From assembly GCF_003010495.1 (NCBI RefSeq), contig NZ_CP027570.1, positions 1,500,001 to 1,532,000 of the forward strand: a DNA stretch of 32,000 bases. The letters are read 5' to 3'. The notes under the pieces are model-generated. The model made no database searches and was not told where the DNA came from. It saw only the letters and a program-made list of their open reading frames with translations. The position numbers and the translations under genes are program-made. This document shows positions 7,464 to 31,327 of this stretch, in pieces. Source of the DNA: Megasphaera elsdenii DSM 20460. GTDB lineage: Bacteria > Bacillota > Negativicutes > Veillonellales > Megasphaeraceae. Positions within the stretch are counted from its first letter, which is position 1. The number at the start of each line of letters is the position of its first letter.

Positions 7464-7659
7464 GTACACGACAGTCCAGGGGGACATGTGGGATGCCATT
7501 GCATATAAAATTTTCGGCAATGAGCTCTATATGAATGAACTGCTGGAAGCGAATGAAACGTACCGGAACACGGCTATTTTTCCGGCAGGAATCATATTGA
7601 ACATCCCGGACATCAATGTAATCCAGTCATCCAAGATTTTGCCACCATGGAAGCGGTGA
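7456..7659 (+). CDS. Tail protein X (P2 gpX-like, LysM-type)
   Basis: The product is 67 aa, the same length as P2 gpX. It reads MNKYTTVQGDMWDAIAYKIFGNELYMNELLEANETYRNTAIFPAGIILNIPDI, matching the gpX pattern (Y.v.qGDt.D.ia...yG...e.vl.aNp...lp.G..i.lPd). It overlaps the tape-measure stop. Confidence 0.75.
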   Translation: MNKYTTVQGDMWDAIAYKIFGNELYMNELLEANETYRNTAIFPAGIILNIPDINVIQSSKILPPWKR

Positions 7660-7663
7660 TGCT

Positions 7664-8830
7664 ATGTCTTTAGAAACGATTAAAGCCAAATTAAATGAAT
7701 GGAAAAAAGAACTGACGCCGGGGACATTCCTCGGACGCCGGGCCTATGCTCAAATACTGTATACGCCGGCAGGCGAAACAGAGAGCAAAGACATATCCGA
7801 AGATATGATGAAGTATCTACTATCCATTGAAGTGACGGACAACCTGTCCGGACAAGTCGATGACATGACAGTCACCTTGGAAGACAGGGCACAGCTGTGG
7901 CAGGACACGTGGTATCCGGAACCGGGGTCCAAATTGGACATTACCCTTTATACGCTGAACAAAAACGGCGTCAACGAGGGTATCAAAGAATTGCCAGTCG
8001 GAGAATTTGAAGTCGATGAAATAGAAATCAACGGGATGCCGACGACGGTACAAATCAAAGCCGTCAACGCCATTGCTGATACGTCATTGCGAGGCATTAA
8101 GCAGAATCAATCGTGGGATAATATCAGTCTCTATAAAATCGCCAATGATATTGCATGGAGAAATGGCATGTTGCTGGACTATGAGCCGGGGGACCAGAAC
8201 AACCCATCGTATGAGCATGTCGAGCAGTCAGACGCATCAGACCTTGAATTTTTGAAGAAGCTATGTGATGATGCCGGCCTGGATCTGAAAATATCGACCA
8301 AGACCATTATCATCCTCGATGAATACCAGCTGGAAACCCAAGAGCCGCTGATTGTATTCTGGCGGCCAGGGACAGCCTCGTTTTCTGAGCAGACGAGTGA
8401 TGATGACGTATCGCCTGAAAATCCGCTGAACTTCACGGATTTTCTGTCCTACTCAATGAAAGCCAAGACCCGTGACATTTATCGGGCCTGCCACGTTAAA
8501 TACAAGCAGGGCAAGAACAAAGAAGTCATCGAGGGCTACTTTGAAGCCCCGAATAAGCAAACGGGGCTGACGCTGGAAGTGAATGAACAATGCGACACAG
8601 TGGACGCTGCAAATAAGCTGGCCAGGAAAAAATTGCGAGAACAGAACCGGGATGAAATCACGGCATCCTTTAGCCTGTACGGCGACTTCCACTTCATGGC
8701 CGGCATTGTTATCGGTTTCATGAACTTCGGTGCCTTTGATGGAAAATATATCGTCACAAAAGCAACACACAGCTTGGGCAATGGTTATGTACTCAGTCTG
8801 GAAATGAGGAGGTGCCTCGATGGATACTAA
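7664..8830 (+). CDS. Late control gene D-like tail/baseplate hub protein (P2 gpD / Mu gpP-like)
   Basis: The product is 388 aa (P2 gpD is about the same size) and lies after the tape-measure and gpX genes. Assignment rests on size and synteny plus general resemblance. Confidence 0.65.
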   Translation: MSLETIKAKLNEWKKELTPGTFLGRRAYAQILYTPAGETESKDISEDMMKYLLSIEVTDNLSGQVDDMTVTLEDRAQLWQDTWYPEPGSKLDITLYTLNKNGVNEGIKELPVGEFEVDEIEINGMPTTVQIKAVNAIADTSLRGIKQNQSWDNISLYKIANDIAWRNGMLLDYEPGDQNNPSYEHVEQSDASDLEFLKKLCDDAGLDLKISTKTIIILDEYQLETQEPLIVFWRPGTASFSEQTSDDDVSPENPLNFTDFLSYSMKAKTRDIYRACHVKYKQGKNKEVIEGYFEAPNKQTGLTLEVNEQCDTVDAANKLARKKLREQNRDEITASFSLYGDFHFMAGIVIGFMNFGAFDGKYIVTKATHSLGNGYVLSLEMRRCLDGY

Positions 8831-11190: not shown

Positions 11191-12494
11191 TAGACGCAGA
11201 TTACAAAATCGCAAAACATTTGCCTGAATCCATCGACAAAGCTCCTGTGCCGGATTTGGCCCAGGCAGTTGATATGGCACTATCTGGCATTAATTCAGAC
11301 TTATTATTGATTTATCCCGCTATCGACAATTTGCCAGAAGCGCTGATTGATCATCTAGCAGCGCAAATGCATGTAGATGAATATGACGATTCTGACTTGA
11401 CGGCAAAAAGGAAACAAGTCAAAGAGTCATTCTTGCTACATAGATACAAAGGAACGAAATACGCTGTACAGCAAGCCATTACTACCGTACATAAATCAGC
11501 GCTCATACAAGAATGGACAGAATACGGCGGAGATCCGTATCATTTCAGAGTCAAACTATCGACCGGCACTTTAGGCGATGCAACGATAATTGATAAAATG
11601 ACACGAGCAATTAACGCATACAAAAACGTCAGGTCATGGCTAGACTATTTTGTCGTATTTGCCAGCAATCCGTTTAAACTCAATAGTTGCAAACGAGATG
11701 ATTCATGCATTCCAGAGACGCACAAAACAACATGGATAACGGAAATCGCTTTTAAAACAGGGCTAAACAAATCATGCGGCACAGTAGAAAGGACAGAAAA
11801 TAACGTAGTCCGAATCGAACACCACGAAACTATATTTTCGGGGAAAAAGATAAATGGAAAATTTAGACGCATAGATCTGAACAACAGCCAGTCATATAAA
11901 AAGCAGTGGACTACCACCCAAACTACTCAGAAAAAGGGAAGAATATTTAACACTGGAGGATACTCCCTAAACAATGTTGGAATTACTCGAATAAAGAAAA
12001 TCGACATTGGATATGACAAGGAGGTCATCGAAAAGCAATTCACACGGGGAACCACAAACAACGGAGCTGTTAAAATTATCCCCAAAGACCAGACACTGCA
12101 TATAACACACAGATGGAAAACCTTTAGAGCCGATACGATGAACGGGGAAAAAGATATCTGCTTAAACGGTGGACAGGTACAAAAACATGAAAAAAGCGAA
12201 GTAAAAATAACGCATACGACAATGAAAACCTTCGTCGGCGCGCTCACCAACGGGAAGCGGTTGACTAATAATAGCCCGACCACCACCATACGTCGGACAG
12301 TCCATACGCCAATCTATAAAAATATTATACAGAAGCCTGGAGCCACACTGCTAAATATGACGGATCATACAACAAAAAAAAGAGCAGTTGAAACGACCAT
12401 CCCGGGGAAAATTATCAAGCGCTTTTCGCCAACAAAGGGGGTGATTTTAAATAGTCATGCATTGATGGGATACATTAAAATTCAGAAAGGATAA
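11187..12494 (+). CDS. Tail protein I-like N-terminal domain fused to a ~270-aa Lys/Thr/Asn-rich extension
   Basis: ATGA overlap with the J-like gene. The first ~160 aa are collinear with P2 gpI (176 aa): ...LPEALIDHLAAQMHVDEYDD...KRKQVKESFLLHRYKGTKYAV...IQEWTEYGGDPYHFRVKL...AYKNVRSWL. From about nt 11650 the DNA becomes visibly AT-rich but stays open for about 280 more codons. Confidence 0.6.
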   Translation: MIDADYKIAKHLPESIDKAPVPDLAQAVDMALSGINSDLLLIYPAIDNLPEALIDHLAAQMHVDEYDDSDLTAKRKQVKESFLLHRYKGTKYAVQQAITTVHKSALIQEWTEYGGDPYHFRVKLSTGTLGDATIIDKMTRAINAYKNVRSWLDYFVVFASNPFKLNSCKRDDSCIPETHKTTWITEIAFKTGLNKSCGTVERTENNVVRIEHHETIFSGKKINGKFRRIDLNNSQSYKKQWTTTQTTQKKGRIFNTGGYSLNNVGITRIKKIDIGYDKEVIEKQFTRGTTNNGAVKIIPKDQTLHITHRWKTFRADTMNGEKDICLNGGQVQKHEKSEVKITHTTMKTFVGALTNGKRLTNNSPTTTIRRTVHTPIYKNIIQKPGATLLNMTDHTTKKRAVETTIPGKIIKRFSPTKGVILNSHALMGYIKIQKG

Positions 12495-14149
12495 TGAACA
12501 TGAGTGAAGAGATAGTAAAATTTCAGGGCGATACGACAGCTCGTGAGCTTTGGGAAAATGGACCAACCGTGTCGACCGGCCTTTCCAGAGTCTTGAGCCC
12601 CAATAATCGGAACTTCGGTTTAGTGGCCTTTCAGCAAGCGAAGCCGATACTGGATTCCGAATTAAACCTGATGCAACAGATTCAAAATAAGTTAAGAGCT
12701 GACATCCTGCGGACAATCATGTCTTCAGGCATTATTAGCATGGACGTCCAGGCGGGTATTACGGACAAGAAAAATACGTTGAGGATTTCCGGCGCAATGG
12801 CGTGCGTCAATGGCTGGCTACTAACATTGTCAGGAAGCAATCGGAACGATGCTGCATCGGACATTGTTTTTCCAGCCGCGCCAAACAGTGGCAGCCGCGA
12901 GGACCTTGCATTCGTAGAGTGTTGGTTTGAAGAAGTCGCACCGTCCGGCAGTCCCGAGGATGATGACGAGAACGTTTACCGCTATGGCGGCATCGCGTCT
13001 GGGACGCTTGCCAACGATTTGCAGGACAACGTGGCCGGCGCTGAGACGACGCGACGCATCCAGCTACGCTGGAACTTCCGCACCGTCACGGACGTGAATT
13101 TCACGACCCACCCTAAAGGCGTCGACAATGGTGACCGTGTGAAAGCGCGGGCCGGAGCACAGAGCGACACGAACTACACTTTCGGCAGCGTCGGCAACGG
13201 CCTGTATCGTGCGGGTGACGGCTCTAGCGCCGCGTGTACGGCACTTAGGTGCGTTGACGGCTACGTCTACGCACTGCCACTTTTCCGCGTCCATCGCCGC
13301 AACCAGACGGCGTATAATGCGACGGACAATAAAGAGGGAGCGCCGGCCTACAACAGCGGCACGCAGATTGCTACGGGGCTTTATCATGACGTCATCGCCG
13401 TGCAGGATGTTTTGCCACTTTATCCGATTGCCTCGGCCTACGAGCAGAGCGCGAACCGCGAGAGCGACCAGGCCGTACTTAAAGAGCTTTTTCAGGCCGT
13501 CCATCAGCAGGCCGCGGAGCTGACGAACTGGAAAACGCAGCGCATTCAGCAGGGCACGGCAACGATTTACAATAAATTCGTTGTCGCAGGCGGCATTATC
13601 AACGCTATCGACGGCACGCGAAACGTCAAGATTACGCGGACTGGCACGTACAGCGCGGCAAACTATTCGCTCATGTATGTAGACGGAATGCTCGTCTCCA
13701 TCTACGACACGCAGGACAGCGTAGCGACAGTGCCAACGAACAGTGGCAGTGCGGCGGCCAACTATTATGCCTACGTCGACAACGACGGAGACAAGTATAA
13801 AGTCAAGGTTGCAGACAGCGTGCCAGACGGCAAGCTTGGACTTTACCGCATCACGATTCCGGCCGGGGACACCGCGGCAAATCTCAACAACGCGAAATTC
13901 ACCGACATTCGGCGCGTCGAGTCGCACTACAGCAATTATTACGGAACGATTCCCGCGACCGCGGTCACGCTGCCATACGCGGCCATCGGGAGCGATTACT
14001 CGGTCGCACTAAATATCGAAAGTACGGCTTACAACCGCGATACGGTGCTTGAAGTTACGGGCAAGAGTCCGAACGGCTTTACGATTAAGAGCCACGGCGT
14101 CGCGGATAACGTCGTCGTGCGCTGGACGCTGACGCAGCCGAACGCATAA
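12494..14149 (+). CDS. Tail fibre / distal baseplate structural protein
   Basis: A 551-aa ORF starts in a TAATG overlap with the previous gene (an alternative ATG is at 12500). Its position after the J and I homologues is where fibre genes sit. No precise family recognised. Confidence 0.5.
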   Translation: MNMSEEIVKFQGDTTARELWENGPTVSTGLSRVLSPNNRNFGLVAFQQAKPILDSELNLMQQIQNKLRADILRTIMSSGIISMDVQAGITDKKNTLRISGAMACVNGWLLTLSGSNRNDAASDIVFPAAPNSGSREDLAFVECWFEEVAPSGSPEDDDENVYRYGGIASGTLANDLQDNVAGAETTRRIQLRWNFRTVTDVNFTTHPKGVDNGDRVKARAGAQSDTNYTFGSVGNGLYRAGDGSSAACTALRCVDGYVYALPLFRVHRRNQTAYNATDNKEGAPAYNSGTQIATGLYHDVIAVQDVLPLYPIASAYEQSANRESDQAVLKELFQAVHQQAAELTNWKTQRIQQGTATIYNKFVVAGGIINAIDGTRNVKITRTGTYSAANYSLMYVDGMLVSIYDTQDSVATVPTNSGSAAANYYAYVDNDGDKYKVKVADSVPDGKLGLYRITIPAGDTAANLNNAKFTDIRRVESHYSNYYGTIPATAVTLPYAAIGSDYSVALNIESTAYNRDTVLEVTGKSPNGFTIKSHGVADNVVVRWTLTQPNA

Positions 14150-14170
14150 GCATAAGAGGAGGCAGAGAAT

Positions 14171-14620
14171 ATGCTGATTAAGAGAATCCCCAAGAAGTGG
14201 GGAAAAGCGGAGTACGTGCCGTTTAAGGTCGACGGCACGACGCTGTACGCAGGGCAGGGAGAGAATACGGTCCACGCCGATTTGCAAGAAATTCAGTCGG
14301 ATATGGCGCAGACCGTCTACATCATGCAGGACTATTCGGGAACCTTAAGCGTCGGCTTCAATTCTTATCTCCCGTACATCTTGCTTATGGCGGAGATTCC
14401 TCCGTATCAGATGCAGATGGTCGACACGGGCGAGAAGAACAAAGACGGCGATGAGCAGTACAAGCCGGAGCGCGTTCCGATTGACATAGACAATATTCAA
14501 TTCACGCTTTGGCCTATGCAGGTCGCCATCGAGTCAGAGAGCGCGGCAGCCAACACGACAACGGAAAGCGCAACCACGACCACGGCAGCAGAAACCACGG
14601 CAGATACGAAAGGGGAATAA
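14171..14620 (+). CDS. Fibre-associated protein, unknown function, with a Thr/Ala-rich tail
   Basis: A 149-aa ORF preceded by GAGGAGG. The C-terminus AAANTTTESATTTTAAETTADTKGE is low complexity. It lies between the fibre gene and the DGR target gene. Confidence 0.45.
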   Translation: MLIKRIPKKWGKAEYVPFKVDGTTLYAGQGENTVHADLQEIQSDMAQTVYIMQDYSGTLSVGFNSYLPYILLMAEIPPYQMQMVDTGEKNKDGDEQYKPERVPIDIDNIQFTLWPMQVAIESESAAANTTTESATTTTAAETTADTKGE

Positions 14621-14625
14621 TCAAA

Positions 14626-15696
14626 ATGGAAAGTTTCATCATTGACAAAGACCGCAAAGCCATTGAACACGCGAGCGGCGGCAAGAACACACTTGTATAC
14701 GACAACGCGGGCAACCCGTCCGTCATGGTTGTTGTTCCGAAATTCAACCTGGAAGATGTTGACCCGTCCGGCACGCTCGGCACGGGCACGCACCCGGCTT
14801 TTATTGTCCACGGTAAAGAAGTTCCAGAAATTATGATTTCTAAATATCAGAACATCGTAGTCAGCGGTCGCGCGTACTCTCTTGCGCACGAAGATCCTGC
14901 GAACTGGATTAACTTTGACGCATCGAAAGCCGCTTGCGAAGCGAAGGGCCGAGGATGGCATCTGATGAGTCGTCTTGAATGGGCAGCCATCGAGCAGTGG
15001 TGCCATAAGAACGGCTTTATGCCACGCGGCAACACGAATTACGGCAAAGCTCACGACGCGGCGCACGAACACGGCGTCATTGGCCGCGACAGCAGGACAC
15101 TCACGGGCAGTGGCCCGCAGAGCTGGAACCACGACAACACGCCATATGGCATTTCTGACCTTTGTGGCAATGTTTGGGAGTGGAACGACGGCTACAAGAC
15201 GGTTGACGGCAAGCTGTATGCGGTCGGTGAAGATGGCGTAGTTATGAATAATTTTGACAACCAAAATGCCTATAAAAACTTGACCGGATTTGTCGACCTC
15301 GGGGCTTGCTACAACTCTACTGTTGCGGGCGACGCGAACAAGGAAAACCACAATATTGGTAAGTACAATATCGCGGCAACCGTTACGAATAAGCAGTACA
15401 CCGGAGGTTCGACCGAAGAATATTACGCGGAGAACGGCAGTAAAATCACCGAGGTCGCTGCGGCTTCCGGCTTCACGATTCCGAAGAGCGTTTACCAGCT
15501 CGGCATTGCGCTCCCTTCTACGTGGACCGATGTCGATGACTATTCTTGGGTACGCAATTACGGCGAACGGCTCCCGATCGCTGGCGGCGATTGGCTCAAC
15601 GGTTCGGACGCGGGAGTTTTCGCGCTGTACGTCTCTCGCCATCGGTCGTTCGCGTACGGCGACATCGGGTTCCGCTCCGCTTACATTGCGATTTGA
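14626..15696 (+). CDS. DGR variable (target) protein, FGE-sulfatase / C-type-lectin-fold; probable receptor-binding protein
   Basis: The start is taken at ATG 14626 (MESFIIDK..., after AAAGGGGA), not at 14509. Motifs GWHLMSRLEWAAIEQW and SDLCGNVWEWNDG are typical of the FGE/CLec fold. The C-terminus ...RLPIAGGDWLNGSDAGVFALYVSRHRSFAYGDIGFRSA is the VR scaffold. Confidence 0.85.
   Translation: MESFIIDKDRKAIEHASGGKNTLVYDNAGNPSVMVVVPKFNLEDVDPSGTLGTGTHPAFIVHGKEVPEIMISKYQNIVVSGRAYSLAHEDPANWINFDASKAACEAKGRGWHLMSRLEWAAIEQWCHKNGFMPRGNTNYGKAHDAAHEHGVIGRDSRTLTGSGPQSWNHDNTPYGISDLCGNVWEWNDGYKTVDGKLYAVGEDGVVMNNFDNQNAYKNLTGFVDLGACYNSTVAGDANKENHNIGKYNIAATVTNKQYTGGSTEEYYAENGSKITEVAAASGFTIPKSVYQLGIALPSTWTDVDDYSWVRNYGERLPIAGGDWLNGSDAGVFALYVSRHRSFAYGDIGFRSAYIAI
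15568..15682 (+). repeat. DGR variable repeat (VR)
   Basis: A 115-bp ungapped alignment to 16131-16245 has 14 mismatches, 13 of them at positions where the TR base is A. The last 21 bp (ACATCGGGTTCCGCTCCGCTT) are identical and GC-rich, which is IMH-like. Confidence 0.9.
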
Positions 15697-15718
15697 ACCT
15701 TGTCACTTGTGTTTTGCA

Positions 15719-15740
15719 GGCGCGGGCGATAGCCCGTGCC
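15719..15740 (+). promoter_or_regulatory. GC-rich hairpin 3' of VR (candidate DGR target-recognition cruciform)
   Basis: The sequence is GGCGCGGGC-GATA-GCCCGTGCC: a 9-bp stem with one G/T mismatch and a 4-nt loop. It starts 37 nt after the end of VR/TR homology. Confidence 0.35.
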
Positions 15741-15783
15741 CTTACTTCAGAGAGGATGAACAACCATCGACAAGCTGACCATT

Positions 15784-16104
15784 TTGACGAAATCCGCGGA
15801 CTTTATGGACGAGCTTTATGACGCGGTCGTGCAATATCCGAAGTCGGAGAAGTTCGCGCTCGGCGCGGATACAAAGGACAGCTTCATGCGGTTCTACCGG
15901 CTGATTATTGCAGCGGCAAAGAAGTATTACAAGAAGACAACGCTCCATGACGCGGATGTAGAGTTATTCGTCCTCAAGCACTTTATCCGGATGGGATTCG
16001 AGCGCCGCTATATGAGTATCAAGAGATACGAGAGGCTTTGCGCTTACATCGAGGAAATCGGCAAGATGCTTGGCGGCTGGATAAAAGCAGCGGAGAAGCG
16101 CTAA
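15784..16104 (+). CDS. avd: Accessory variability determinant (Avd)
   Basis: The 106-aa basic protein looks all-helical (...YPKSEKFALGADTKDSFMRFYRLIIAAAKKYYKK...), resembling the Avd / 23S-IVS four-helix-bundle family. It sits between the target gene and TR. The start is uncertain: TTG at 15784 has no clear SD, and an in-frame ATG lies at 15805. Confidence 0.8.
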   Translation: MTKSADFMDELYDAVVQYPKSEKFALGADTKDSFMRFYRLIIAAAKKYYKKTTLHDADVELFVLKHFIRMGFERRYMSIKRYERLCAYIEEIGKMLGGWIKAAEKR

Positions 16105-16425
16105 TCACCTTTGGGGGATGGCCGTATATTCGGCTCCCGATCGCTGGCGGCAATTGGAACAACGGTTCGAACGCGGGAGTTTTCGCGCTGAACGTCAATA
16201 ACCGTCGGTCGAACGCGAACGGCAACATCGGGTTCCGCTCCGCTTTACTTCGAACGTCAGAAGGCGCAGCCCTACGGGGCTACGCACAGTACACGAAGAA
16301 ATAAAGGGGCCATTCTCCATGCACCAGCAATGGCGCAAAAAACAAAAACGGATACCCGCGGTTAGTACGGCGCACGCAGGAAGGCGCAGGCTGGAAGGGC
16401 GCGGGTAGGTTAGTAGGGATTTTGC
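16105..16425 (+). ncRNA. DGR RNA region (TR plus ~180-nt spacer up to the RT start)
   Basis: This is a non-coding interval between avd and RT. It holds TR and a structured spacer, including the hairpin GCGCAGCCC-TACG-GGGCTACGC at 16264-16285. Transcript ends are not determinable from sequence. Confidence 0.5.
16131..16245 (+). repeat. DGR template repeat (TR)
   Basis: This non-coding copy of VR starts 27 nt after the avd stop. It contains 23 adenines and ten AAY codons in the VR-equivalent frame (RLPIAGGNWNNGSNAGVFALNVNNRRSNANGNIGFRSA). Confidence 0.9.
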
Positions 16426-17502
16426 TTGAAACGAATTGGGAATATTTATCCAGCTATTTACGACTTTGAAAATCTATATTACGCATACAGGGAGGCGAGG
16501 AAATGCAAGCGATACAGGCAGGAAGTCATGCAATTCGCGCAGAGCCTTGAGGAAAATCTTATCGAGATTCAGAATGAGCTGATTTGGCGAGAATACCGCG
16601 TAGGGAAGTATCACGAATTTTACGTGCGAGATCCGAAACGCAGACTAATCATGGCGTTGCCGTCTCGCGACCGTGTTGTACAATGGGCGATTTACCGGCA
16701 GCTCAATCCGATTCTCGACCGGAGGTATTTATCAACTTCCTACGGATGCAGGATCGGCGGCGGCGCGCATCGCGCGGTTGCGAAGCTCAAAGAATATTTA
16801 CGACTACAGACCGGCACAGCCTACATTCTGAAAATGGACGTCAGCAAGTACTTTTACCGTATCGACCACGATGTACTCATGGGGATCTTGGAGCGCATCG
16901 TGAAAGACCGCGGGCTACTTTGGTTACTACATGAGATTATCTATAGCGACCACGATTTCGGCATCGCGACCGATGATTACGACTTCACGGGCGAGCGGCT
17001 TTCCAGCGTCGGAATGCCTATCGGGAACCTTTCTTCGCAGATGTTCGCGAACCTATACCTCAACGAAGCAGACCAATATGCGAAACGCATCTTGAAGTGC
17101 AAGTACTACATCCGGTATATGGACGATGTTATCGTCGTGAGCAACGACCGTGCGAGGCTTTGGGAAGTCTGGCGCGCGATGGACGATTTTATGCGCGAGA
17201 GGCTACGACTCAAGCTCAACGCAAAGACTTGTATCCGATCCGAGGTGCAGGGCGTTGACTTCTGCGGATACCGGATCTGGCGCGACCATATCCGACTCAG
17301 GAAAAAGAGCGCGCTCAAGATGAAGCACCGCCTTCGGTGGCTAAAAAGAGCCTACGCTCGCGGAGAAGTCGACATACAGACCGTCGCCGCTTCACTAACA
17401 AGCTATTTCGGACTATTGTCACACTGCGATAGCTACGAGCTCAGGAAGAGTATACTGAACAACCTTGTACTGGTTAGAAAGCGAAAGGAGGGAAATAAAT
17501 GA
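16426..17502 (+). CDS. DGR-type reverse transcriptase
   Basis: TTG start gives MKRIGNIYPAIYDFENLYYAYREARKCKRYR. Motifs seen are SYGCRIGGGAHRAV, ILKMDVSKYFYRIDH, GMPIGNLSSQMFANLYLN (the DGR-specific [I/L]GxxxSQ) and YIRYMDDVIVV (YxDD). Confidence 0.9.
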   Translation: MKRIGNIYPAIYDFENLYYAYREARKCKRYRQEVMQFAQSLEENLIEIQNELIWREYRVGKYHEFYVRDPKRRLIMALPSRDRVVQWAIYRQLNPILDRRYLSTSYGCRIGGGAHRAVAKLKEYLRLQTGTAYILKMDVSKYFYRIDHDVLMGILERIVKDRGLLWLLHEIIYSDHDFGIATDDYDFTGERLSSVGMPIGNLSSQMFANLYLNEADQYAKRILKCKYYIRYMDDVIVVSNDRARLWEVWRAMDDFMRERLRLKLNAKTCIRSEVQGVDFCGYRIWRDHIRLRKKSALKMKHRLRWLKRAYARGEVDIQTVAASLTSYFGLLSHCDSYELRKSILNNLVLVRKRKEGNK

Positions 17503-17945
17503 TAGAAGCAGTAATCAATTTTTTTCGCGAGATGGCCCCGGCAGGGCCCGAAATAGAGTGGGGAGCAGCAGTATCATGCGGTGGAACCATTTTTTCATAT
17601 CTGGTTGGATGGAATACGGTAATAGAAGCATTATTAGTGGCCATGGCCATTGATTATATTACTGGAATTTTGGCGGCATATATCAATCCCAATATGCAGC
17701 TCAATAGTCAACGCGGATTCAAGGGAATATGTAAAAAAATCGTGATACTGTTGCTTGTCGCATTGGCACACGAATTAGATCGGGCAACTGGACAGCCGGC
17801 TGTCCAATCGCTAGTTGCGTGGTTTTTTTTGGGAAATGAGGGTTTATCAATTATTGAAAATGCGGCAAAAGCCGGTTTACCGGTGCCCGCCAGATTAAAA
17901 GATACATTAGAACAATTGACCAACAAAAAGGAGGAACGAAAATGA
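17499..17945 (+). CDS. Holin (phage_holin_4_1-like)
   Basis: ATGA overlap with the RT stop; 148 aa. Hydrophobic segments and ...AMAIDYITGILAAY...KKIVILLLVALAHELD...FFLGNEGLSIIENAAKAGLPVP are typical of this holin family. It lies directly upstream of the amidase. Confidence 0.75.
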   Translation: MIEAVINFFREMAPAGPEIEWGAAVSCGGTIFSYLVGWNTVIEALLVAMAIDYITGILAAYINPNMQLNSQRGFKGICKKIVILLLVALAHELDRATGQPAVQSLVAWFFLGNEGLSIIENAAKAGLPVPARLKDTLEQLTNKKEERK

Positions 17946-18529: not shown

Positions 18530-18808
18530 ATGGATAAACAGGAAATTTTAGACCTTATGGCACAGAAAGCGGCAGAAATCGCGAAAGCTCAGGCAGCAGC
18601 AGTTGTATCAAGCATTACCGTCGACGAACTCCGCCCACTCGTAGAATCGCAGATTAAATTAATCACCGACCCGCTCCAGGCTGAAATCAATAGCACGACG
18701 TCGCCCTGGGTCAAAATCCGTAACTCCGTCTATATCAAACTTATCAGCAGCACAGTAGGTACTATTATCAGTAGTATCCAGTCCGGATTGTCTGACATAA
18801 ATAAGTAG
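18530..18808 (+). CDS. Small protein downstream of the endolysin, unknown function
   Basis: A 92-aa ORF follows AAGGAGG. It is the last gene of the late operon before a terminator. No signal peptide or lipobox was seen. Confidence 0.45.
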   Translation: MDKQEILDLMAQKAAEIAKAQAAAVVSSITVDELRPLVESQIKLITDPLQAEINSTTSPWVKIRNSVYIKLISSTVGTIISSIQSGLSDINK

Positions 18809-18839
18809 ATACGACATATAAAACTATTGATAATGTAGC

Positions 18840-18900
18840 AGCCCTTGGTAGTACGCACTGCGATTGTACGCAGATTGCCGAGCCCAGGGGCTATTTTTTT
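18840..18900 (+). terminator. Candidate intrinsic terminator of the late/lysis operon
   Basis: An outer 9-bp stem AGCCCTTGG (18840-18848) / CCAGGGGCT (18884-18892) encloses an inner hairpin CTGCG-ATTGTA-CGCAG. A run of seven T (18894-18900) follows. Confidence 0.5.
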
Positions 18901-18901
18901 A

Positions 18902-18929
18902 TTGCAAATTTTGCGAGATGTGCTATACT
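18902..18929 (+). promoter_or_regulatory. Sigma70-type promoter with extended -10 (TTGCAA-16-TGcTATACT)
   Basis: -35 TTGCAA is at 18902-18907, TG at 18921-18922 and -10 TATACT at 18924-18929. No ORF over 5 codons follows before the next terminator. Confidence 0.45.
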
Positions 18930-18935
18930 ATAGGC

Positions 18936-19053
18936 AAGTCATGGCAGAAATATTCTGACCACGAGGATTGAAATTGTAACGTTGATTAGTAGTAATAACA
19001 GCTAGTCAAGCAAAAAAGGCTTGTTTACCACATTTGGTAGACAAGCCTTTTTT
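18936..19053 (+). ncRNA. Candidate prophage-encoded small RNA (~115 nt)
   Basis: It is bounded by the promoter above and the strong terminator at 19012-19053. It contains only a 5-codon ORF (MAEIF). An internal hairpin TTGATTAG...CTAGTCAA is present. Confidence 0.3.
19012..19053. terminator. Bidirectional intrinsic terminator
   Basis: The sequence is AAAAAAGGCTTGTTTACCA-CATT-TGGTAGACAAGCCTTTTTT: a 14-bp stem with one wobble, flanked by an A-run and a T-run. It lies between convergent transcription units. Confidence 0.75.
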
Positions 19054-19117
19054 GCTATTTCATTTGTTACCGTGCGGCCAGTGTAGCCAGGCGGAGCCAG
19101 AAGCCCCGCCTGTCATT

Positions 19118-19837
19118 TCATTTTACAATGGTTCTTAAATGTAATCGCTGTATATTCCATCCACCGGCAATTATTGTTTCAACATAGGCGGTCCCATTCG
19201 TTCCCGTTATCGTGCCGTTTAGGGCCTTTCCGTTGCTATCTAACCGGATTCCACTGTAGTCGGTAATGATACCGACCTTTTTCTTCACCCGGCCAACAAG
19301 ATCGATTATGTAACCTTGTGCGGCGACCTTATTTTTCGATTTTATTTGCTTATCCGTCAAGTCTTTCTCTTCGTAAGCATGATACCCGTATTTTTTCACA
19401 AAGGCTTTGTAGCCCATTTCCTTGCATTCACTTTTGTACAGGTCACGCCGGTAAAAAGCTGTTTTGTTCCAACTATTTTCCAATTCAGCTTGAAGTTTTA
19501 CGAGAACCTCTGGAACGGCTTTGAGGTCTTCGTTTTTCGCTTTCAACTGTTCCACTTTTTCGGTTAATTCTTTAACCTTTTCAGTGGCTTCCGAAACCTT
19601 CTTGTTCACTTCTTTGACTTCATCGGTTGCAAATTGAATATCAATTTGTAACCACCGTTCGGCTTGCCCCTTGAATTCTGGGACCTGATATTCTTTAGGA
19701 AGAGTTCCGTTGACTTTATAAAGTTCCAACTTTTCCAACTGATCCATTTTTCTCTGTAATCTCTTTTGCGCTTTTTCCAGTTTTACTTTTGCATTTTCCA
19801 GTCTTGCTTTTGCATTCTCGTATTTAATCATTGTCAT
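19118..19837 (-). CDS. Coiled-coil protein with a globular C-terminal domain, unknown function (moron)
   Basis: A 239-aa ORF on the opposite strand to all phage genes, with RBS AAGGAGG. The N-terminal ~120 aa are heptad-rich (ARLENAKVKLEKAQKRLQRKMDQLEKLE...KVKELTEKVEQLKAKNEDLK). The locus is AT-rich. Confidence 0.6.
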   Translation of the reverse strand: MTMIKYENAKARLENAKVKLEKAQKRLQRKMDQLEKLELYKVNGTLPKEYQVPEFKGQAERWLQIDIQFATDEVKEVNKKVSEATEKVKELTEKVEQLKAKNEDLKAVPEVLVKLQAELENSWNKTAFYRRDLYKSECKEMGYKAFVKKYGYHAYEEKDLTDKQIKSKNKVAAQGYIIDLVGRVKKKVGIITDYSGIRLDSNGKALNGTITGTNGTAYVETIIAGGWNIQRLHLRTIVK

Positions 19838-19881
19838 AATGTTTTCCTCCTTTGTACAACACTGTTTTTATTGTTGTCTAA

Positions 19882-19911
19882 ATCGTATCACATGTTACTG
19901 GGCGTTGTCAA
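19882..19911 (-). promoter_or_regulatory. Candidate promoter for the 239-aa gene (TTGACA-18-TGaTACGAT)
   Basis: On the minus strand, -35 TTGACA is at 19911-19906 and the extended -10 TGATACGAT ends at 19882. The spacer is 18 bp. Confidence 0.4.
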
Positions 19912-19948
19912 CACTAAAAATAATTATTTTTAAAAATATAATAATGTT

Positions 19949-19977
19949 ATTGACACCTTATAAAATGTGTAATAGTA
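19949..19977 (+). promoter_or_regulatory. Promoter P1 (TTGACA-17-TAGTAT, followed by ATAAT)
   Basis: -35 is at 19949-19954 and -10 at 19972-19977. It lies 30 nt upstream of the HTH gene and diverges from the minus-strand promoter. Confidence 0.5.
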
Positions 19978-20006
19978 TATAATCAATAGATGGGAGTGAT
20001 GTAAAA

Positions 20007-20204
20007 ATGACAAAAGAACAGTTTCAGAAGATGTGGAAAAAATGGCTTATCGATGTAGACAAGTCAGAAGCAGAAATCGCCCGCGAAAACGGGATGTTTC
20101 AGCAGAATCTTAATGCAAAAATTAAAAACGGCTCTATAAAATATGTAGAGCTTAGTGGGATTGTAGAGAAGTATGGATATACTATAGAAATCCGTAAAAA
20201 ATAA
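20007..20204 (+). CDS. Small HTH (Cro/XRE-like) DNA-binding protein
   Basis: 65 aa, RBS GGGAG. The segment SEAEIARENGMFQQNLNAKIKNGSIKYVELSGIVEKYGYTIEI has the helix-turn-helix pattern of small Cro/CI-type regulators. Confidence 0.55.
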   Translation: MTKEQFQKMWKKWLIDVDKSEAEIARENGMFQQNLNAKIKNGSIKYVELSGIVEKYGYTIEIRKK

Positions 20205-20216
20205 TCAAAAATAGTG

Positions 20217-20244
20217 TTGACATAATCAAAATGCATGTTATAAT
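20217..20244 (+). promoter_or_regulatory. Promoter P2 (TTGACA-16-TGtTATAAT), consensus with extended -10
   Basis: -35 TTGACA is at 20217-20222, TG at 20236-20237 and -10 TATAAT at 20239-20244. Confidence 0.7.
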
Positions 20245-20298
20245 ATAATCAGAAAGAGGGCAGAAAGCCCCAAGAGTGAACCGAAAGGAGCGGTAAAA

Positions 20299-20733
20299 AT
20301 GAAGGTAAATATTACATACAGCTGTGGTCACGAAGGAACTATTGAAGTCTTCGGCAAAGCCGAAGAACGAGAAAGAAAAATCAAATATTTTGAAGAATAT
20401 GGTCTTTGTCATGATTGTTATAAAGCAGAAAAACAGACTGAAGAAAAGGCATTCGCGGAAGGACATGAGCTTCCGGAATTAAAAGGCTCGGAAAAGCAAA
20501 TTTCCTGGGCAAATAAAATTCGGAAAGAAAAAATTGAAACATTCGAAAAAGAAAAGCTTGCGATTCGCAAGGGAGCCGGAGACGATTTCGCTGACTTTCT
20601 CGATGAATTTACAAAGGATTACTATCAAAATGATTCGGCATCGTGGTGGATTGACCATCGAGAATGGAGAACATTTAAAAAAGATCTATTAGGGGCAGCT
20701 GTAGTGGCTTTCAAGGCAAAAGACGGCATGTAA
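20299..20733 (+). CDS. Hypothetical protein with an N-terminal CxH...CxxC zinc-ribbon-like motif
   Basis: 144 aa, RBS AAAGGAG. It reads MKVNITYSCGHEGTIEVFGKAEERERKIKYFEEYGLCHDCYK; the rest is charged and helical. No family recognised. Confidence 0.6.
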   Translation: MKVNITYSCGHEGTIEVFGKAEERERKIKYFEEYGLCHDCYKAEKQTEEKAFAEGHELPELKGSEKQISWANKIRKEKIETFEKEKLAIRKGAGDDFADFLDEFTKDYYQNDSASWWIDHREWRTFKKDLLGAAVVAFKAKDGM

Positions 20734-20745
20734 AATATTCCGTCG

Positions 20746-20785
20746 GCCCCGTCGAGAATTCGGCGGGGCTAATTTTTTATTTTTC
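20746..20785 (+). terminator. Intrinsic terminator
   Basis: The hairpin GCCCCGTCG-AGAATT-CGGCGGGGC (9 bp, one G-T wobble) is followed by TAATTTTTTATTTTT. Confidence 0.65.
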
Positions 20786-20814
20786 TTGTCTAAAAGAAAC
20801 AGGAGGGATGATAT

Positions 20815-21003
20815 ATGGAAGAAAGCAGAAAAAAAGCCAATAAAAAGTGGCTCGCAAAAAACTACGAGTCAATCACTATCAGAGTCCCAAAGGGAACCAA
20901 AGAACAGATTAAGGCCTGGGCTGAAATAGCTGGTATTAGCATGGCCGCTTATATACAGGCTGCTTGCAAAGAAAAAGCCGAAAAGTTTACACATAACCCT
21001 TGA
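20815..21003 (+). CDS. Ribbon-helix-helix (Arc/CopG-like) small DNA-binding protein
   Basis: 62 aa, RBS AGGAGGGA. The segment YESITIRVPKGTKEQIKAWAEIAGISMAAYIQAACKEK fits the beta-strand/helix/helix RHH pattern. Confidence 0.55.
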   Translation: MEESRKKANKKWLAKNYESITIRVPKGTKEQIKAWAEIAGISMAAYIQAACKEKAEKFTHNP

Positions 21004-21028
21004 CAATCTGTACTACATGCAGTACAAT
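21000..21028 (+). promoter_or_regulatory. Promoter P3 (TTGACA-17-TACAAT, followed by ATAAT)
   Basis: -35 at 21000-21005 overlaps the RHH gene stop codon. -10 is at 21023-21028. Confidence 0.55.
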
Positions 21029-21085
21029 ATAATTAAAGAAGGGGGAAATGAACCCCACAGAAAAGATAAGAAGGAGACGGTAATT

Positions 21086-21322
21086 ATGAAATTAAACATC
21101 ACGGATAACGAAAAGAAAGAATTAGAAAGAATTTGGAGTGAAGTCTTGAAGGCTTTTCCTGAAGGCACAGAGCAAGACATGACAACATCGATTGAAAAGT
21201 ATGTCGATGAAAATGGCATCCCGGAAACCGATGAACACGATGCGCTTATCGGTGACCAATTGGAAGAATACTTAGAAAAAGGCTTGAATTTTGAAGATTG
21301 CAGAACGATAATCGAAGACTGA
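21086..21322 (+). CDS. Small highly acidic protein (78 aa), unknown function
   Basis: The start is taken at ATG 21086, 7 nt after AAGGAG, rather than at 21017. About 23 of 78 residues are Asp/Glu against 8 Lys/Arg (counted by eye). Confidence 0.55.
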   Translation: MKLNITDNEKKELERIWSEVLKAFPEGTEQDMTTSIEKYVDENGIPETDEHDALIGDQLEEYLEKGLNFEDCRTIIED

Positions 21323-21487: not shown

Positions 21488-21563
21488 TGGTGGACCATCA
21501 GGGGATCGAACCCTGGACACCCTGATTAAGAGTCAGGTGCTCTGCCAGCTGAGCTAATGGTCC
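21488..21563 (-). tRNA. tRNA-Lys (anticodon CUU), CCA encoded
   Basis: The reverse complement folds as a 76-nt cloverleaf: acceptor GGACCAT/ATGGTCC, D arm GCTC-AGCTGGCA-GAGC, anticodon arm CCTGA-CTCTTAA-TCAGG, variable GTGTC, T arm CAGGG-TTCGATC-CCCTG, discriminator A, then CCA. Confidence 0.92.
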
Positions 21564-21772: not shown

Positions 21773-23236
21773 ATGCGCATGATTACTTATAATGGCAATG
21801 GCGGTATGGATACGCTTGCCGTCGGCATCAATCGGCGCTTGTCGACGCTGCGTCAGTTGCCCAAGGATGATGTCATGGTCATCCGGGCTTATGTTGAACA
21901 GCATCCGGAGGTGTTACCATATACATCCCTCCATGTCTTCCATTTCCTGTCGGATGGTCAGGCTAAGACATATTTCCTCATCGGCCTGGAAGGGAAGCCC
22001 ATCCGTTATTCGACGTATGAAGATTTCCGTATGGCCCGGCGCCTCATGGCAGCGGCTATGAAGGAAGGCGTCAGCGAGTTGGCTGTCATGGCTGATACCC
22101 TGGATATGGATCTGGGCTCCCTCATCGATGGCCTGCTGTACCGCAATTATGAATTTACCCGCTATAAACGCCAGGCTAAGAGCCGGACCATTGGCAATAT
22201 CAATATCCTGACCCATAGCCTGCGGCCGAAGGAATTCAATTCTATGTGCTATATGTATACTTCGGTCTATGAAGGCATCTATACCGCCAGGGATCTGGTC
22301 AACATGCCGTCGAACGATTTGACGCCGCGCAAGTTCGCCGACATCGTCGGCGGGATGCTCAAGGGCGATAATATCCTCATTGAGAACCTCAATAAGTGGA
22401 CTTTGGAAAAACGCCATATGGGCGGCATCGTCGCCGTCGGCAAGGGCAGCATGAATCCGCCGCAGCTCTTGTCCATCGCCTATCAGGGGGACCCTAACAG
22501 CCGGGAAGTCCTGGGCATCGTCGGCAAGGGCGTCACCTATGACAGCGGCGGCTTGTCCCTTAAAAGTCATGCCAATCTGGAATTTATGAAGGACGATATG
22601 GCTGGGGCCGCAGCGGCTGTCGGTGTCATGCGGGCGTTGATGCTGCTCAAGTATCCCGTCAATGTCCTGGCGGTCATCCCGCTGGTCGAAAATATTCCTT
22701 CCGGTATGGCCTATCATGTCGATGATATCCTGACCATGTATAATGGCAAGACCGTAGAAGTCAAGAATACCGATGCCGAAGGAAGGCTCATCCTGGCCGA
22801 CGCCCTGACGTATGCCCAGGAAAAAGGGGCGACGCGCCTCATCGACCTGGCGACTTTGACCGGCGCCTGCGTGACGGCTTTGGGGACTGTCCGGACGGGC
22901 ATGATCGGCAACGACCAGGAGTGGATGAACCATTTCTTCCAGGCCGCTACGGAAGTCCACGAAAAGATATGGCAGCTGCCGGCTGATGAAGAATATGAAA
23001 AGCTCCTGGAAAGCGACGTAGCCGATTTGAAGAACGTCGGCGGTCCCGAAGCCGGCGCGATTACGGCAGGCCTCTTCCTCAAGCAGTTCGTCCACGACGG
23101 CACGCCGTGGATCCACTTGGATATTGCCGGTCCGGCTTTCAATGAAAAAGCCGATGAAACGGGCCTCATCGGGGCGACCGGCGTCGGCATCAAATCGATT
23201 CTTCATTTATTACAGGGAGGCTTCCCATGCTCGTAG
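21773..23236 (+). CDS. pepA: Leucyl aminopeptidase (M17 family)
   Basis: 487 aa. VGKGVTYDSGGLSLK and the M17 signature NTDAEGRLILADAL are present. The start could be ATG 21773 or ATG 21779. Confidence 0.9.
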   Translation: MRMITYNGNGGMDTLAVGINRRLSTLRQLPKDDVMVIRAYVEQHPEVLPYTSLHVFHFLSDGQAKTYFLIGLEGKPIRYSTYEDFRMARRLMAAAMKEGVSELAVMADTLDMDLGSLIDGLLYRNYEFTRYKRQAKSRTIGNINILTHSLRPKEFNSMCYMYTSVYEGIYTARDLVNMPSNDLTPRKFADIVGGMLKGDNILIENLNKWTLEKRHMGGIVAVGKGSMNPPQLLSIAYQGDPNSREVLGIVGKGVTYDSGGLSLKSHANLEFMKDDMAGAAAAVGVMRALMLLKYPVNVLAVIPLVENIPSGMAYHVDDILTMYNGKTVEVKNTDAEGRLILADALTYAQEKGATRLIDLATLTGACVTALGTVRTGMIGNDQEWMNHFFQAATEVHEKIWQLPADEEYEKLLESDVADLKNVGGPEAGAITAGLFLKQFVHDGTPWIHLDIAGPAFNEKADETGLIGATGVGIKSILHLLQGGFPCS

Positions 23237-24033
23237 ACTTACACATGCACACGACCTGCTCCGATGGTGTCTATACACCGGAGCAGCTGACCCGGATGGC
23301 TGTCGATGCCAAGCTCAGTGTCATGGCCATTTCTGACCACGATACCGTCGCCGCCTATGATGGCAGCCATTCTTTTGCGCCAGGCGTCCGCGTCATCCCG
23401 GCTATTGAAATCAGTTCGGAATGTGACGGCGAAGATGTCCATATCCTGGGGTACGGCATTGATACGGCTGATGAAGGGCTGCAGGCTTACTGCGCCCAGT
23501 TCAAGGAACGGCGCTTCAACAGGGCCTTGGAAATCGTCGACCGCTGCCGGGCGCTTGGTTATGATATCGACCGCAGCGCCATCGAAGCGACGCTGCGACA
23601 GGGCGGCACCGTCGGCCGGCCCCATATTGCCCGCCAGCTCGTGGCCAAAGGCTATTTCCCGGACGTCAAGACGGTCTTTGATAAGCTCCTCTATCGCGGG
23701 GGTCCAGCCTACGTGCCGTATCACCGCCGCAGCATCGACGACTGTGTCGCCCTTATCCGCCAGGCCGGGGGCATTGCCGTCCTGGCCCATCCGGGACTGC
23801 TCAAGCGGACGCTGGACCAGGTCCTGGCCCATGACTTTGACGGCGTCGAAGTCTATCACCCCAAGAACCGCGGCCGTTATAAGGAATTTTTGAAACTGGC
23901 CGAGGACCGTCATTGGTACGTCAGCGGCGGCTCTGATTTCCACGGCACGACAGGGCGCTTCCCGGAAAAGGTCGGCGTTTTCACCGTCGATGCCCAAGCT
24001 GTAAAAGCCTTACTGAATGATGTAAAAGGATAA
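23227..24033 (+). CDS. PHP-domain metal-dependent phosphoesterase (TrpH/YciV-like)
   Basis: 268 aa. MLVDLHMHTTCSDG, ISDHDT, ...AHP...EVYHP... and GGSDFHG are typical PHP metal-ligand motifs. It overlaps the pepA end by 10 nt. Confidence 0.85.
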   Translation: MLVDLHMHTTCSDGVYTPEQLTRMAVDAKLSVMAISDHDTVAAYDGSHSFAPGVRVIPAIEISSECDGEDVHILGYGIDTADEGLQAYCAQFKERRFNRALEIVDRCRALGYDIDRSAIEATLRQGGTVGRPHIARQLVAKGYFPDVKTVFDKLLYRGGPAYVPYHRRSIDDCVALIRQAGGIAVLAHPGLLKRTLDQVLAHDFDGVEVYHPKNRGRYKEFLKLAEDRHWYVSGGSDFHGTTGRFPEKVGVFTVDAQAVKALLNDVKG

Positions 24034-24058
24034 GCTTTAAGAAAAGCAGGTGAGATTC

Positions 24059-24892
24059 ATGGAAGTTTTCGGTTTTATTGGGGCCAGTGGTACCGGCAAG
24101 AGCCATCATGCCCTGGTCGTCGCCTATGACCACGATATCCAGACCATCATCGACGACGGCCTGCTCATCGACCACAACCGTATCGTTGCCGGCCGGTCGG
24201 CCAAGGAAGAGACGAACCGCCTGAAGGCCGTGCGCCGGGCCATTTTCAACAAGCCTGAAGATGCAGCAGCCATGCGGGCGGCGTTGGCGAGAGTCCATCC
24301 GCCGAAACTGCTCATCCTGGGGACGTCGAAACACATGATCCACCGCATCTGCCAGGCCTTGGATCTGCCGGAAGCGTCGCAGTTCATCCGCATCGAGGAT
24401 GTATCGTGCCCGTCCGAGATCGCCAAGGCCCGGGCTATCCGCCTGAAAGAAGGCAAGCATATCATCCCCGTGCCGACGATGGAACTGAAGCCCCATTTCC
24501 AGGGCTATCTCCTGGACCCGATACGCTCCTTCTTCTACGGCCGTAACGGCAAGCAGATTTCCAACTTTGAACGATCCGTCGTCCGGCCTGTCTTCAGCTA
24601 TTATGGCAAGCTGACCTTTTCGAACGAAGTACTGGAAGCCTTAGTGCGCCATGCGTTGAAACAAAATGGCGGCGTCACCAAGATCAACCGTCTGCGGGTG
24701 GCCATCAATTACAATTCAACGCGCAACGGCCTGGCTATCATCCTGTCCCTGACCATCGCCTATGGCCAGAACATCAAGAAGCTCATGAGCCGCATCCGCA
24801 AGGCTATCCAGCAGGAAGTAGAATACACGACGGGCATGGCCGTCGAAATCCTCAAGATTACGGTCCGCGGTATTTCCCAGCCGGAACACTAG
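24059..24892 (+). CDS. P-loop NTPase N-terminal domain fused to an Asp23/Gls24-like C-terminal domain
   Basis: The start is taken at ATG 24059, 5 nt after AGGTGAG; the GTG at 24050 lies inside that SD. A Walker A motif GASGTGKS is at residues 10-17. The C-terminal ~110 aa (...VTKINRLRVAI...NGLAIILSLTIAYGQNIKKLMSRIRKAIQQEVEYTTGMAVEILKITVRGI) look like Asp23 family. Confidence 0.6.
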   Translation: MEVFGFIGASGTGKSHHALVVAYDHDIQTIIDDGLLIDHNRIVAGRSAKEETNRLKAVRRAIFNKPEDAAAMRAALARVHPPKLLILGTSKHMIHRICQALDLPEASQFIRIEDVSCPSEIAKARAIRLKEGKHIIPVPTMELKPHFQGYLLDPIRSFFYGRNGKQISNFERSVVRPVFSYYGKLTFSNEVLEALVRHALKQNGGVTKINRLRVAINYNSTRNGLAIILSLTIAYGQNIKKLMSRIRKAIQQEVEYTTGMAVEILKITVRGISQPEH

Positions 24893-26367: not shown

Positions 26368-26613
26368 AACTAAGACCCCTTTGATGGTAAAATTGAATGT
26401 GTGTATATTCTTTATATTCATTATATAGCTGCGGCGGGACACCTTCAAGGAAAGACCTTGTCACGTTTGTCATCTTTCGGGCAACTTTTTCATCTTTTGT
26501 CACGGCTTTGTGCGTATTTTTCAAGGGAAAACAGGGCTATACTAAAGTCAGAAGATGAGAAGAAAAAGAGCTCATCGAAGATAAGCAAGGCAATCTATAA
26601 GGAGGGAGTCATC

Positions 26614-28164: not shown

Positions 28165-28193
28165 GGACCATTGGAGAGTCATCACTGTAAACC

Positions 28194-28230
28194 AAAAAAG
28201 GGGCTGTCGCATGTGCGACAACCCCTTTTT
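28194..28230. terminator. Bidirectional intrinsic terminator
   Basis: The sequence is AAAAAA-GGGGCTGTCG-CATGTG-CGACAACCCC-TTTTT: a 10-bp stem with one mismatch, between convergent genes. Confidence 0.7.
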
Positions 28231-28247
28231 ATATGAGCTGCGAGATA

Positions 28248-28652: not shown

Positions 28653-28812
28653 AGTGGTATAACCTCCTAAGTAAATGGGAATATGCCTGAATCGTATAGA
28701 TTGAGGCGATTTACATAACTATATCATATCATACTTTCCTCTTTTTTGACAGAAAAAGCGTCATAGGATACAATGAACATGTTACTGTTTGAGAAAAACG
28801 AGGAGTGAAATT

Positions 28813-29490: not shown

Positions 29491-29580
29491 TTTGTAGTTT
29501 GGCGTCAAATATCCAGGCGGGCCGCCCTTTGGGACGGCCCCTACGAACTGCTAGCCACTAACCACTAGCCGCTAACCACT

Positions 29581-31272: not shown

Positions 31273-31327
31273 GGTGTGCACTCCTTTGACGATAGATGGA
31301 TGAGTTGAAATTCGTGTTGCAACCTGT

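Follow-up and report, generated by a model that had tools for sequence, protein, structure and literature searches.

In the diversity-generating retroelement (DGR) of Bordetella phage BPP-1, a target gene carrying the variable repeat (VR) is followed by avd, a template repeat (TR), a spacer (Sp), and a reverse transcriptase (RT) gene. Adenine-specific differences separate a TR rich in AAY codons from a VR at the C-terminus of a C-type-lectin fold of the formylglycine-generating enzyme (FGE) type. A GC hairpin with a GRNA loop lies downstream of the VR, and the spacer is structured, with a long-range duplex (“cPRT Stop”) that brackets the TR. A DGR is also borne by a prophage of Thermus aquaticus, in which avd comes after the gene for the variable protein TaqVP (PDB ID 5VF4). 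The element in this report occupies positions 14626 to 17502, on the forward strand, of a 32,000-nucleotide (nt) stretch of Megasphaera elsdenii DSM 20460 (contig NZ_CP027570.1, positions 1,500,001 to 1,532,000), called the window here. It has an Avd protein and shares each of the BPP-1 properties listed above, among them the gene order, for which the likeness to BPP-1 had been pointed out in an earlier reading made from the DNA letters and their open reading frames (ORFs), hereafter the sequence-only reading. It differs from BPP-1 in that its host is a Negativicute and its phage has a contractile tail. We conclude with high confidence that this DGR is complete and of the BPP-1 type, running target/VR, avd, TR, spacer RNA, and RT, and that it ends the tail module of a contractile-tailed M. 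elsdenii DSM 20460 prophage; its proposed mechanism is like that of BPP-1. It is very probably functional and of the classical phage type.

The element itself is already known: it has been catalogued and is an ordinary case of a well-known kind of system. In its list of DGR-positive entries (PMC3521204, Additional file 2), the DiGReF survey of 2012 included gi 348026361, an RT from M. elsdenii DSM 20460 that is very likely the RT of the window locus. That entry is from the same organism, in a catalogue without analysis of RNA, hairpin, or population variation, and a literature search combining Megasphaera with DGR found no dedicated study. [quoted passage not shown]

The repeat pair is an ungapped, 115-nt direct repeat with the VR at positions 15568 to 15682 and the TR at positions 16131 to 16245, both on the forward strand; the copies are 88% identical and lie 563 nt apart. 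Thirteen of their 14 mismatches fall on the 23 adenines of the TR (six A>T, four A>G, and three A>C), for which the hypergeometric probability is 3e-10 (at least 13 of 14 mismatches on 23 A among 115 positions). No C or T of the TR differs from the VR, and the sole mismatch elsewhere is G16204 in the TR against A15641 in the VR, giving R339H in the target. The VR is in frame with the 356-amino-acid (aa) target ORF and encodes residues 315 to 352, at the C-terminus. Read in the same frame, the TR has ten AAY and two ATC codons; at nine of the ten AAY codons the VR instead encodes D, L, D, Y, S, R, F, Y, and D, and the final 21 nt of the two copies are identical. The TR sits in a noncoding gap between the end of a 106-aa ORF (16104) and the start of the RT ORF (16426). 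The theoretical repertoire is 15^10 peptides from the AAY codons and 9.2e12 when both ATC codons are added. A search of the whole window for a third TR-like copy or a further target, using a pattern with each adenine as N and allowing up to 12 substitutions, found none. The sequence-only reading was accurate in each of its details: recounting returned its repeat coordinates and its tally of 14 mismatches (13 at A, one at a TR G, none at C or T), codon-by-codon comparison gave the residues that it had listed, the identical last 21 bp and the noncoding position of the TR agree with the sequence and the ORF ends, and its figure of 15^10 variants is right for the AAY codons alone.

The 106-aa ORF that adjoins the TR is avd, the accessory variability determinant (positions 15784 to 16104, forward strand, TTG start). 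Its product scored 105.3 bits with the NCBIfam equivalog model NF033474 (DivGenRetAVD), for which the cutoff is 80, and it matched Pfam bAvd (1.8e-28) and phrog_3206, which is annotated as “Avd protein of DGR.” The protein is WP_198407941.1, named “diversity-generating retroelement protein Avd” in RefSeq. The RT gene (positions 16426 to 17502, forward strand, TTG start) encodes 358 aa, identical to WP_041647154.1, with IGNLSSQ and YMDD as its versions of the [I/V/L]GxxxSQ and YxDD motifs. Its best solved relative is 8ub7 (E = 1.3e-43, 153 bits), a sequence that tblastn matched at 100% identity to brt of phage BPP-1, so that Brt is the closest solved relative; the best group II intron RT reached 84 bits, and an entry named “retron-type reverse transcriptase” reached 79 bits. 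The RT also matched phrog_1423 (4e-134), and the NCBIfam models for group II, retron, and defense-associated (DRT) reverse transcriptases all scored far under their cutoffs, NCBIfam having no model for DGR RTs. An adenine-biased TR/VR pair was found at 45 of 80 loci with homologues of the window RT, in many phyla; most of the remaining loci are contigs with little flanking DNA. The suggestion that the 106-aa ORF be compared with Avd models thus yielded a match above the cutoff, and the assignment of the RT to the DGR type rather than to the group II introns or retrons held, as did the motifs that the sequence-only reading had picked out of the translations (IGNLSSQ and YMDD in the RT, GWHLMSRLEW and GNVWEWNDG in the target). 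The RT, Avd, and target ORFs are all intact.

Both avd (15784) and the RT gene (16426) have apparent TTG starts, and shorter public versions of the two proteins (Avd, 99 aa; RT, 324 aa) begin at internal ATG codons. Because the alignments to the Avd model and to BPP-1 Brt run from residue 2, the comparison favours the longer TTG starts.

Cassettes related to that of the window were drawn from genomes, viral contigs, and metagenomes. In the 14 that were compared, TR and VR differ by 8 to 17 mismatches each, all or all but one of them at adenines. Non-adenine substitutions that are specific to the TR of one lineage recur in the VR of the same lineage, and information therefore keeps flowing from TR to VR. 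Two close relatives, the prophage loci L081 and L082, match the window at 98% and 97% identity, respectively, across about 6 to 7 kb. Their TR, avd, and spacer show no differences from the window (the TR is 100% identical in both), whereas their VRs differ from that of the window at 16 and 18 of the 115 positions, compared to about 2% in the rest of the gene. All of these VR differences are at TR adenines except for position 15641, which is specific to the window: it is A only there and G in every TR and in the other close VRs, apart from one distant lineage that has T in both its TR and its VR. A15641 arose either by point mutation of the VR or through an error of the RT at a base other than adenine; at least one non-adenine substitution was reported in 23% of 372 DGRs (PMC5758913). 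The sequence-only reading had held that VR differences spread over all four TR bases would indicate ordinary divergence of a duplicated segment, and the related prophages, position 15641 aside, differ at TR adenines only, so that this condition for refutation did not hold.

The same pattern is found among natural proteins. The 15 members of the cluster formed at 90% identity have 14 distinct VR peptides. Within the VR, 12 of the 13 adenine-containing codons vary (mean, 6.5 alleles) compared to 1 of the 25 others (Fisher P = 6e-8), and the single variable non-adenine codon is R339H, which occurs in the sequence of the window only. The VR is thereby hypervariable in close relatives at TR-adenine codons only, and at the population level it turns over while the TR stays constant. 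This variation indicates, indirectly, that mutagenic retrohoming takes place in relatives of the window element.

Two of the collected loci are worth separate mention. In the metagenomic locus L094 (TR at 5498 to 5612, VR at 4943 to 5057), the TR is short of several adenines, with AAC codons reading GCC, GAC, and AGC, and the VR has the same bases at these sites, leaving eight mismatches at adenine sites; this could reflect erosion of the mutagenic potential of the TR or a VR-to-TR conversion. Within the genome collection, the nearest RT (87% identity) is on a contig of a Selenomonadaceae metagenome-assembled genome (L001, positions 1 to 217) that breaks inside the TR, 217 nt upstream of the RT gene, and this locus was left out of the comparisons. 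The break is typical of assembly at a TR/VR repeat, and DGR loci are often cut in metagenome assemblies.

A structured, cis-acting RNA flanks the TR on its donor side. The spacer RNA at positions 16243 to 16390 (forward strand) matched Rfam RT-14 (RF02921) with 56.6 bits against a gathering score of 48.1. When a model of 39 pairs was applied to an alignment of 11 cassettes, 92% of the cells were paired, compared to 42 to 56% in slid controls, and 19 of the 39 pairs were compensatory. A long-range duplex was found between GGGGGATGGCC (GGGGGAUGGCC) at positions 16113 to 16123, just upstream of the TR, and GGCCATTCTCC (GGCCAUUCUCC) at positions 16308 to 16318 in the spacer, both on the forward strand, and the two strands bracket the TR. 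It is paired in 98.3% of the cells in the 11 relatives, with 3 of its 11 pairs compensatory, and is a candidate counterpart of the avd:Sp “cPRT Stop” duplex of BPP-1.

As described in cryo-electron microscopy (cryo-EM) work on BPP-1, the template:primer duplex is formed by the TR 3′ end with Sp47-56, priming takes place from Sp A56, and the “cPRT Stop” duplex is formed with avd by Sp59-70, two nucleotides after the primer duplex (bioRxiv 10.1101/2023.10.23.563531). The corresponding region of the window has stem P1 of RT-14, in which positions 16245 to 16251, spanning the final base of the TR and the start of the spacer, pair with a candidate primer strand, GAAGAAA, at positions 16295 to 16301 (forward strand), and the stem ends 6 nt upstream of the strand of the stop duplex. 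This order, P1 and then the stop duplex, is that of BPP-1, which puts A16301 first among the candidates for the adenosine that primes. An alternative primer pairing proposed by RNAalifold joins TR positions 16238 to 16245 to AAAAACGGA at positions 16344 to 16352.

Weinberg et al. described the motifs RT-1 to RT-19, placed RT-10 in the BPP-1 spacer, and guessed that the other RT motifs serve other DGRs (PMC5737381). RT-14, published as an RT-associated RNA without a known role, falls exactly in the TR-to-RT spacer of a DGR here, a position that supports their guess that further RT motifs are DGR RNAs.

On the acceptor side, the VR ends in an IMH-like block, TCGGGTTCCGCTCCGCTT, at positions 15665 to 15682 (forward strand). 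This block of 18 nt is adenine-free, GC-rich, and identical in VR and TR, in line with the IMH-like character that had been ascribed to the 3′ end of the repeat from its base composition and identity. It lies 3′ of TR position 97, the last that varies in any relative, and all 15 cassettes have it in identical or almost identical form. Its identity in VR and TR sets the window apart from BPP-1; identical IMH and IMH* sequences are a case noted previously (PMC5758913). Given that the block is the same at donor and acceptor, the two sites would have to be told apart by the sequence downstream. There, following the VR and not the TR, a conserved block of 36 nt (positions 15683 to 15718, forward strand) comprises the last codons, the stop, and TTG....TTGTGTTTTG. 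It is largely invariant over 11 cassettes whose targets go down to about 62% identity, and we infer that it helps in acceptor-site recognition.

The 36-nt block is followed by a GC inverted repeat (positions 15719 to 15740, forward strand) that DNA fold prediction renders as a hairpin or cruciform with a 9-bp stem, GGCGCGGGC/GCCCGTGCC, and the loop GATA. Over the 11 cassettes, 97.9% of the stem cells are paired, compared to 36 to 54% in slid controls, with two compensatory pairs, and the loops (GATA, GAGA, GGCA, and GGTA) all fit 5′-GRNA. Guo et al. found that a hairpin/cruciform is needed for efficient homing in BPP-1 and described a GC stem of 7 to 10 bp, a GRNA loop, and a distance of 4 to 34 bp from the VR (PMC3240598). 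The hairpin of the window lies 36 nt past the repeat, compared to 4 to 34 bp in eight phage-associated DGRs, including BPP-1. An intrinsic terminator was also considered for this structure and was rejected, as it has no T-run.

The analysis shows the anatomy of the locus, family memberships, conservation of RNA and DNA structure, and adenine-restricted VR turnover in natural relatives; we infer where priming takes place, what the 36-nt block does, the location in the virion, and tropism switching. By analogy with BPP-1, the RNA over the avd 3′ end, TR, and spacer would fold so that the duplex of positions 16113 to 16123 with 16308 to 16318 brackets the TR. A spacer adenosine beside this duplex, possibly A16301, would then prime cDNA synthesis on the TR 3′ end, and a complex of RT and Avd would copy the TR faithfully except for misincorporation opposite adenines. 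The cDNA would replace the VR at an acceptor marked by the IMH-like block, the conserved 36-nt block, and the GC hairpin with its GRNA loop. The expected outcome is the randomization of 12 codons (ten AAY and two ATC), corresponding to about 9e12 peptides, on what is predicted to be the ligand-binding face of a TaqVP-like lectin protein. One joint reading of these elements is that, with the IMH block identical at both sites, direction is set entirely by the 36-nt block and the GRNA hairpin, and that RT-14 is the DGR spacer RNA of this lineage, with primer-then-stop duplexes like those of BPP-1 and priming at about position 16301; we consider this reading evenly poised between right and wrong. 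If it is true, the cis-primed mechanism seen in the BPP-1 cryo-EM structure extends to the DGRs of Negativicute/Firmicute phages and RT-14 gains a function. The element gives RT-14 a concrete role in the genome, and no long-standing question is opened. M. elsdenii DSM 20460 is a cultivable rumen/gut anaerobe with a clean, natural phage DGR for which dozens of natural VR alleles are public, which makes it convenient for work on changes in host range driven by DGRs in Negativicutes and on the reach of the BPP-1 priming/stop RNA architecture.

The target gene (positions 14626 to 15696, forward strand) encodes a variable protein of 356 aa, with the same sequence as WP_014016071.1 / CCC73337.1 from M. 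elsdenii DSM 20460. A PDB sequence search with it returned TaqVP (5vf4) over the full length at E = 3.6e-60 and about 35% identity. An AlphaFold2 model built with 64 homologues had a mean predicted local distance difference test score (pLDDT) of 95.5, and the top PDB matches of this model in Foldseek were the TaqVP chains, with a template modeling (TM) score of 0.90. Far weaker matches, with TM scores of about 0.3, were found to CalU17, PvdO, Treponema TvpA (E = 2.7e-3), and BPP-1 Mtd (E of about 1e-2). Taken together, these structural matches to the predicted model indicate a C-type-lectin fold of the FGE subtype, the fold that the sequence-only reading had recognized in the target. The VR of the window aligns with the segment defined as the VR in the TaqVP paper, at the C-terminus in both proteins. 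The T. aquaticus element is thus similar in its target, in being prophage-borne, and in having avd after the variable-protein gene; it differs in host phylum, and the inserts of the window protein are shorter by about 25 residues. In BPP-1, by comparison, the target is of another kind than this TaqVP-like single-domain protein.

Full-length homologues of the target, 37 to 39% identical, are the targets in the temperate phages VHML, VP585, BalMu-1, FP_Lagaffe, Pseudoalteromonas phage ACA1, and Pseudomonas phage Bise, which differ from the window in their hosts and have no nucleotide similarity to it beyond the TR/VR core. A nucleotide search of 50,697 phage records returned only short matches to the TR/VR core, at about 72 to 75% identity, and so no isolated phage in these records is closely related. 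The genes upstream of the target specify tail completion, sheath, tube-region, chaperone, tape measure, and baseplate proteins, one of them P2-I-like. Between the baseplate genes and the target lie the genes for a 551-aa protein (12494 to 14149) and a 149-aa protein (14171 to 14620), the latter matching phrog_8734 (unknown function). No family was found for the 551-aa protein in Pfam, PHROGs, or a PDB sequence search. Its N-terminal half has weak tblastn similarity to an annotated tail fibre from Tunturiibacter phage Tunturi_5, at about 30% identity across some half of the protein, and also weakly resembles gp211 of Bacillus phage G, and its C-terminal 200 residues weakly match the protein encoded just upstream of the DGR target in phage Bise, where the target gene likewise follows this homologue. 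The 551-aa protein is likely a fibre or adaptor that bears the variable protein.

From the position of the gene and the annotations that depositors gave to homologues in phages FP_Lagaffe and ACA1, it is plausible that the target is the distal receptor-binding protein and that the DGR switches tropism. Several points weigh against the overall reading given here. The nearest solved homologue, TaqVP, is a single-domain monomer without the trimerizing domains of Mtd and is not a trimeric fibre (PMC6328139), a caveat on the proposed seat of the target on the tail fibre. Both candidate primer pairings are invariant in sequence, without covariation, so that covariation cannot choose between them. 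One mismatch between TR and VR, at position 15641, is off adenine. Thirty-one contigs carry exactly this target protein, with its R339H allele, and the VR is therefore stable over the timescale of strain resequencing. For this strain itself, the evidence of retrohoming is indirect. Finally, the window holds only the tail and lysis half of the prophage, which limits any judgement of inducibility.

The first of these points bears on an alternative in which the DGR is active and the target is not a receptor-binding protein. The target would instead be a monomeric, lectin-fold accessory, for example, a protein for some non-host ligand, or an adaptor decorating the fibre and playing no part in host range. 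This would suit a full-length structural homologue that is monomeric, the presence of a separate upstream protein of 551 aa whose N-terminal half is weakly like an annotated tail fibre, and the match of the target to phrog_2889 (E = 4.9e-117), to which family annotation ties no function. The target ORF, however, has no signal peptide, as read from the sequence, and it closes the tail module, with the DGR accessory genes and the lysis genes after it. Its full-length homologues are in the six temperate phages named above, and some of them were labeled Mtd-like or “antireceptor” by their depositors, although these names are annotations and not tests. We regard the accessory role as unlikely, if deserving of some weight. 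A virion-borne target involved in host recognition is the most likely arrangement, and since TaqVP is a monomer lacking the trimerizing domains of Mtd, the target may dock on the 551-aa protein rather than form a fibre itself.

The stability of the allele bears on another alternative, that this is a real DGR now dormant or fossil in this strain, for example, in a defective prophage or an unexpressed cassette, with the TR/VR pattern recording past homing. Besides the 31 contigs with an identical target protein, it draws on the one non-adenine mismatch accumulated in the VR and on the half of the prophage that is visible. A promoter and terminator scan of positions 14000 to 17700 adds to this, having found nothing above shuffled expectation and no sigma-70-like promoter before avd or TR. 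On the other side, the RT, Avd, and target ORFs have remained intact, with the catalytic YMDD motif present, and relatives in which the VR has turned over share 100% identity with the window in TR, avd, and spacer. Only 1 of the 92 non-adenine positions of the VR differs from its own TR, compared to a background of about 2%, which argues for recent homing, and single non-adenine substitutions are common, as the survey of 372 DGRs shows. We therefore consider dormancy decidedly improbable and prefer the reading of the element as a functional DGR. That the two copies are an ordinary duplicated segment, diverged by mutation or gene conversion with an excess at adenines by chance, finds nothing in its favor other than the one non-adenine mismatch and is refuted by the strength of the adenine bias (P = 3e-10), by the same bias in 14 independent relatives, by population variation confined to adenine codons, and by the adjacent, dedicated genes for Avd and a DGR-type RT.

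Downstream of the cassette are holin and amidase genes. The small ORFs at 18530 to 21322, from the lysis genes to a tRNA gene, belong to no family except for a match to phrog_16123. The tRNA gene, tRNA-Lys(CTT), is at 21488 to 21563 on the reverse strand and is followed at 21773 to 31359 by host metabolic genes, including those for an M17 aminopeptidase, a PHP protein, Asp23, a coenzyme A (CoA) transferase, and a thiamine pyrophosphate (TPP) enzyme. With the tRNA-Lys gene and host genes at its right, the window therefore holds the right-hand part of the prophage, the right end of which lies just left of the tRNA-Lys gene, probably with the attachment site there too. The 97 to 98% identity of L081 and L082 to the window stops at the last RT codons (window positions 17491 to 17502). 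In L081, unrelated ORFs at positions 6865 to 8212 stand in place of the holin_4_1 and amidase_3 genes of the window, and L082 stops about 200 nt further on. The DGR cassette thus has a mosaic recombination junction at its 3′ end.

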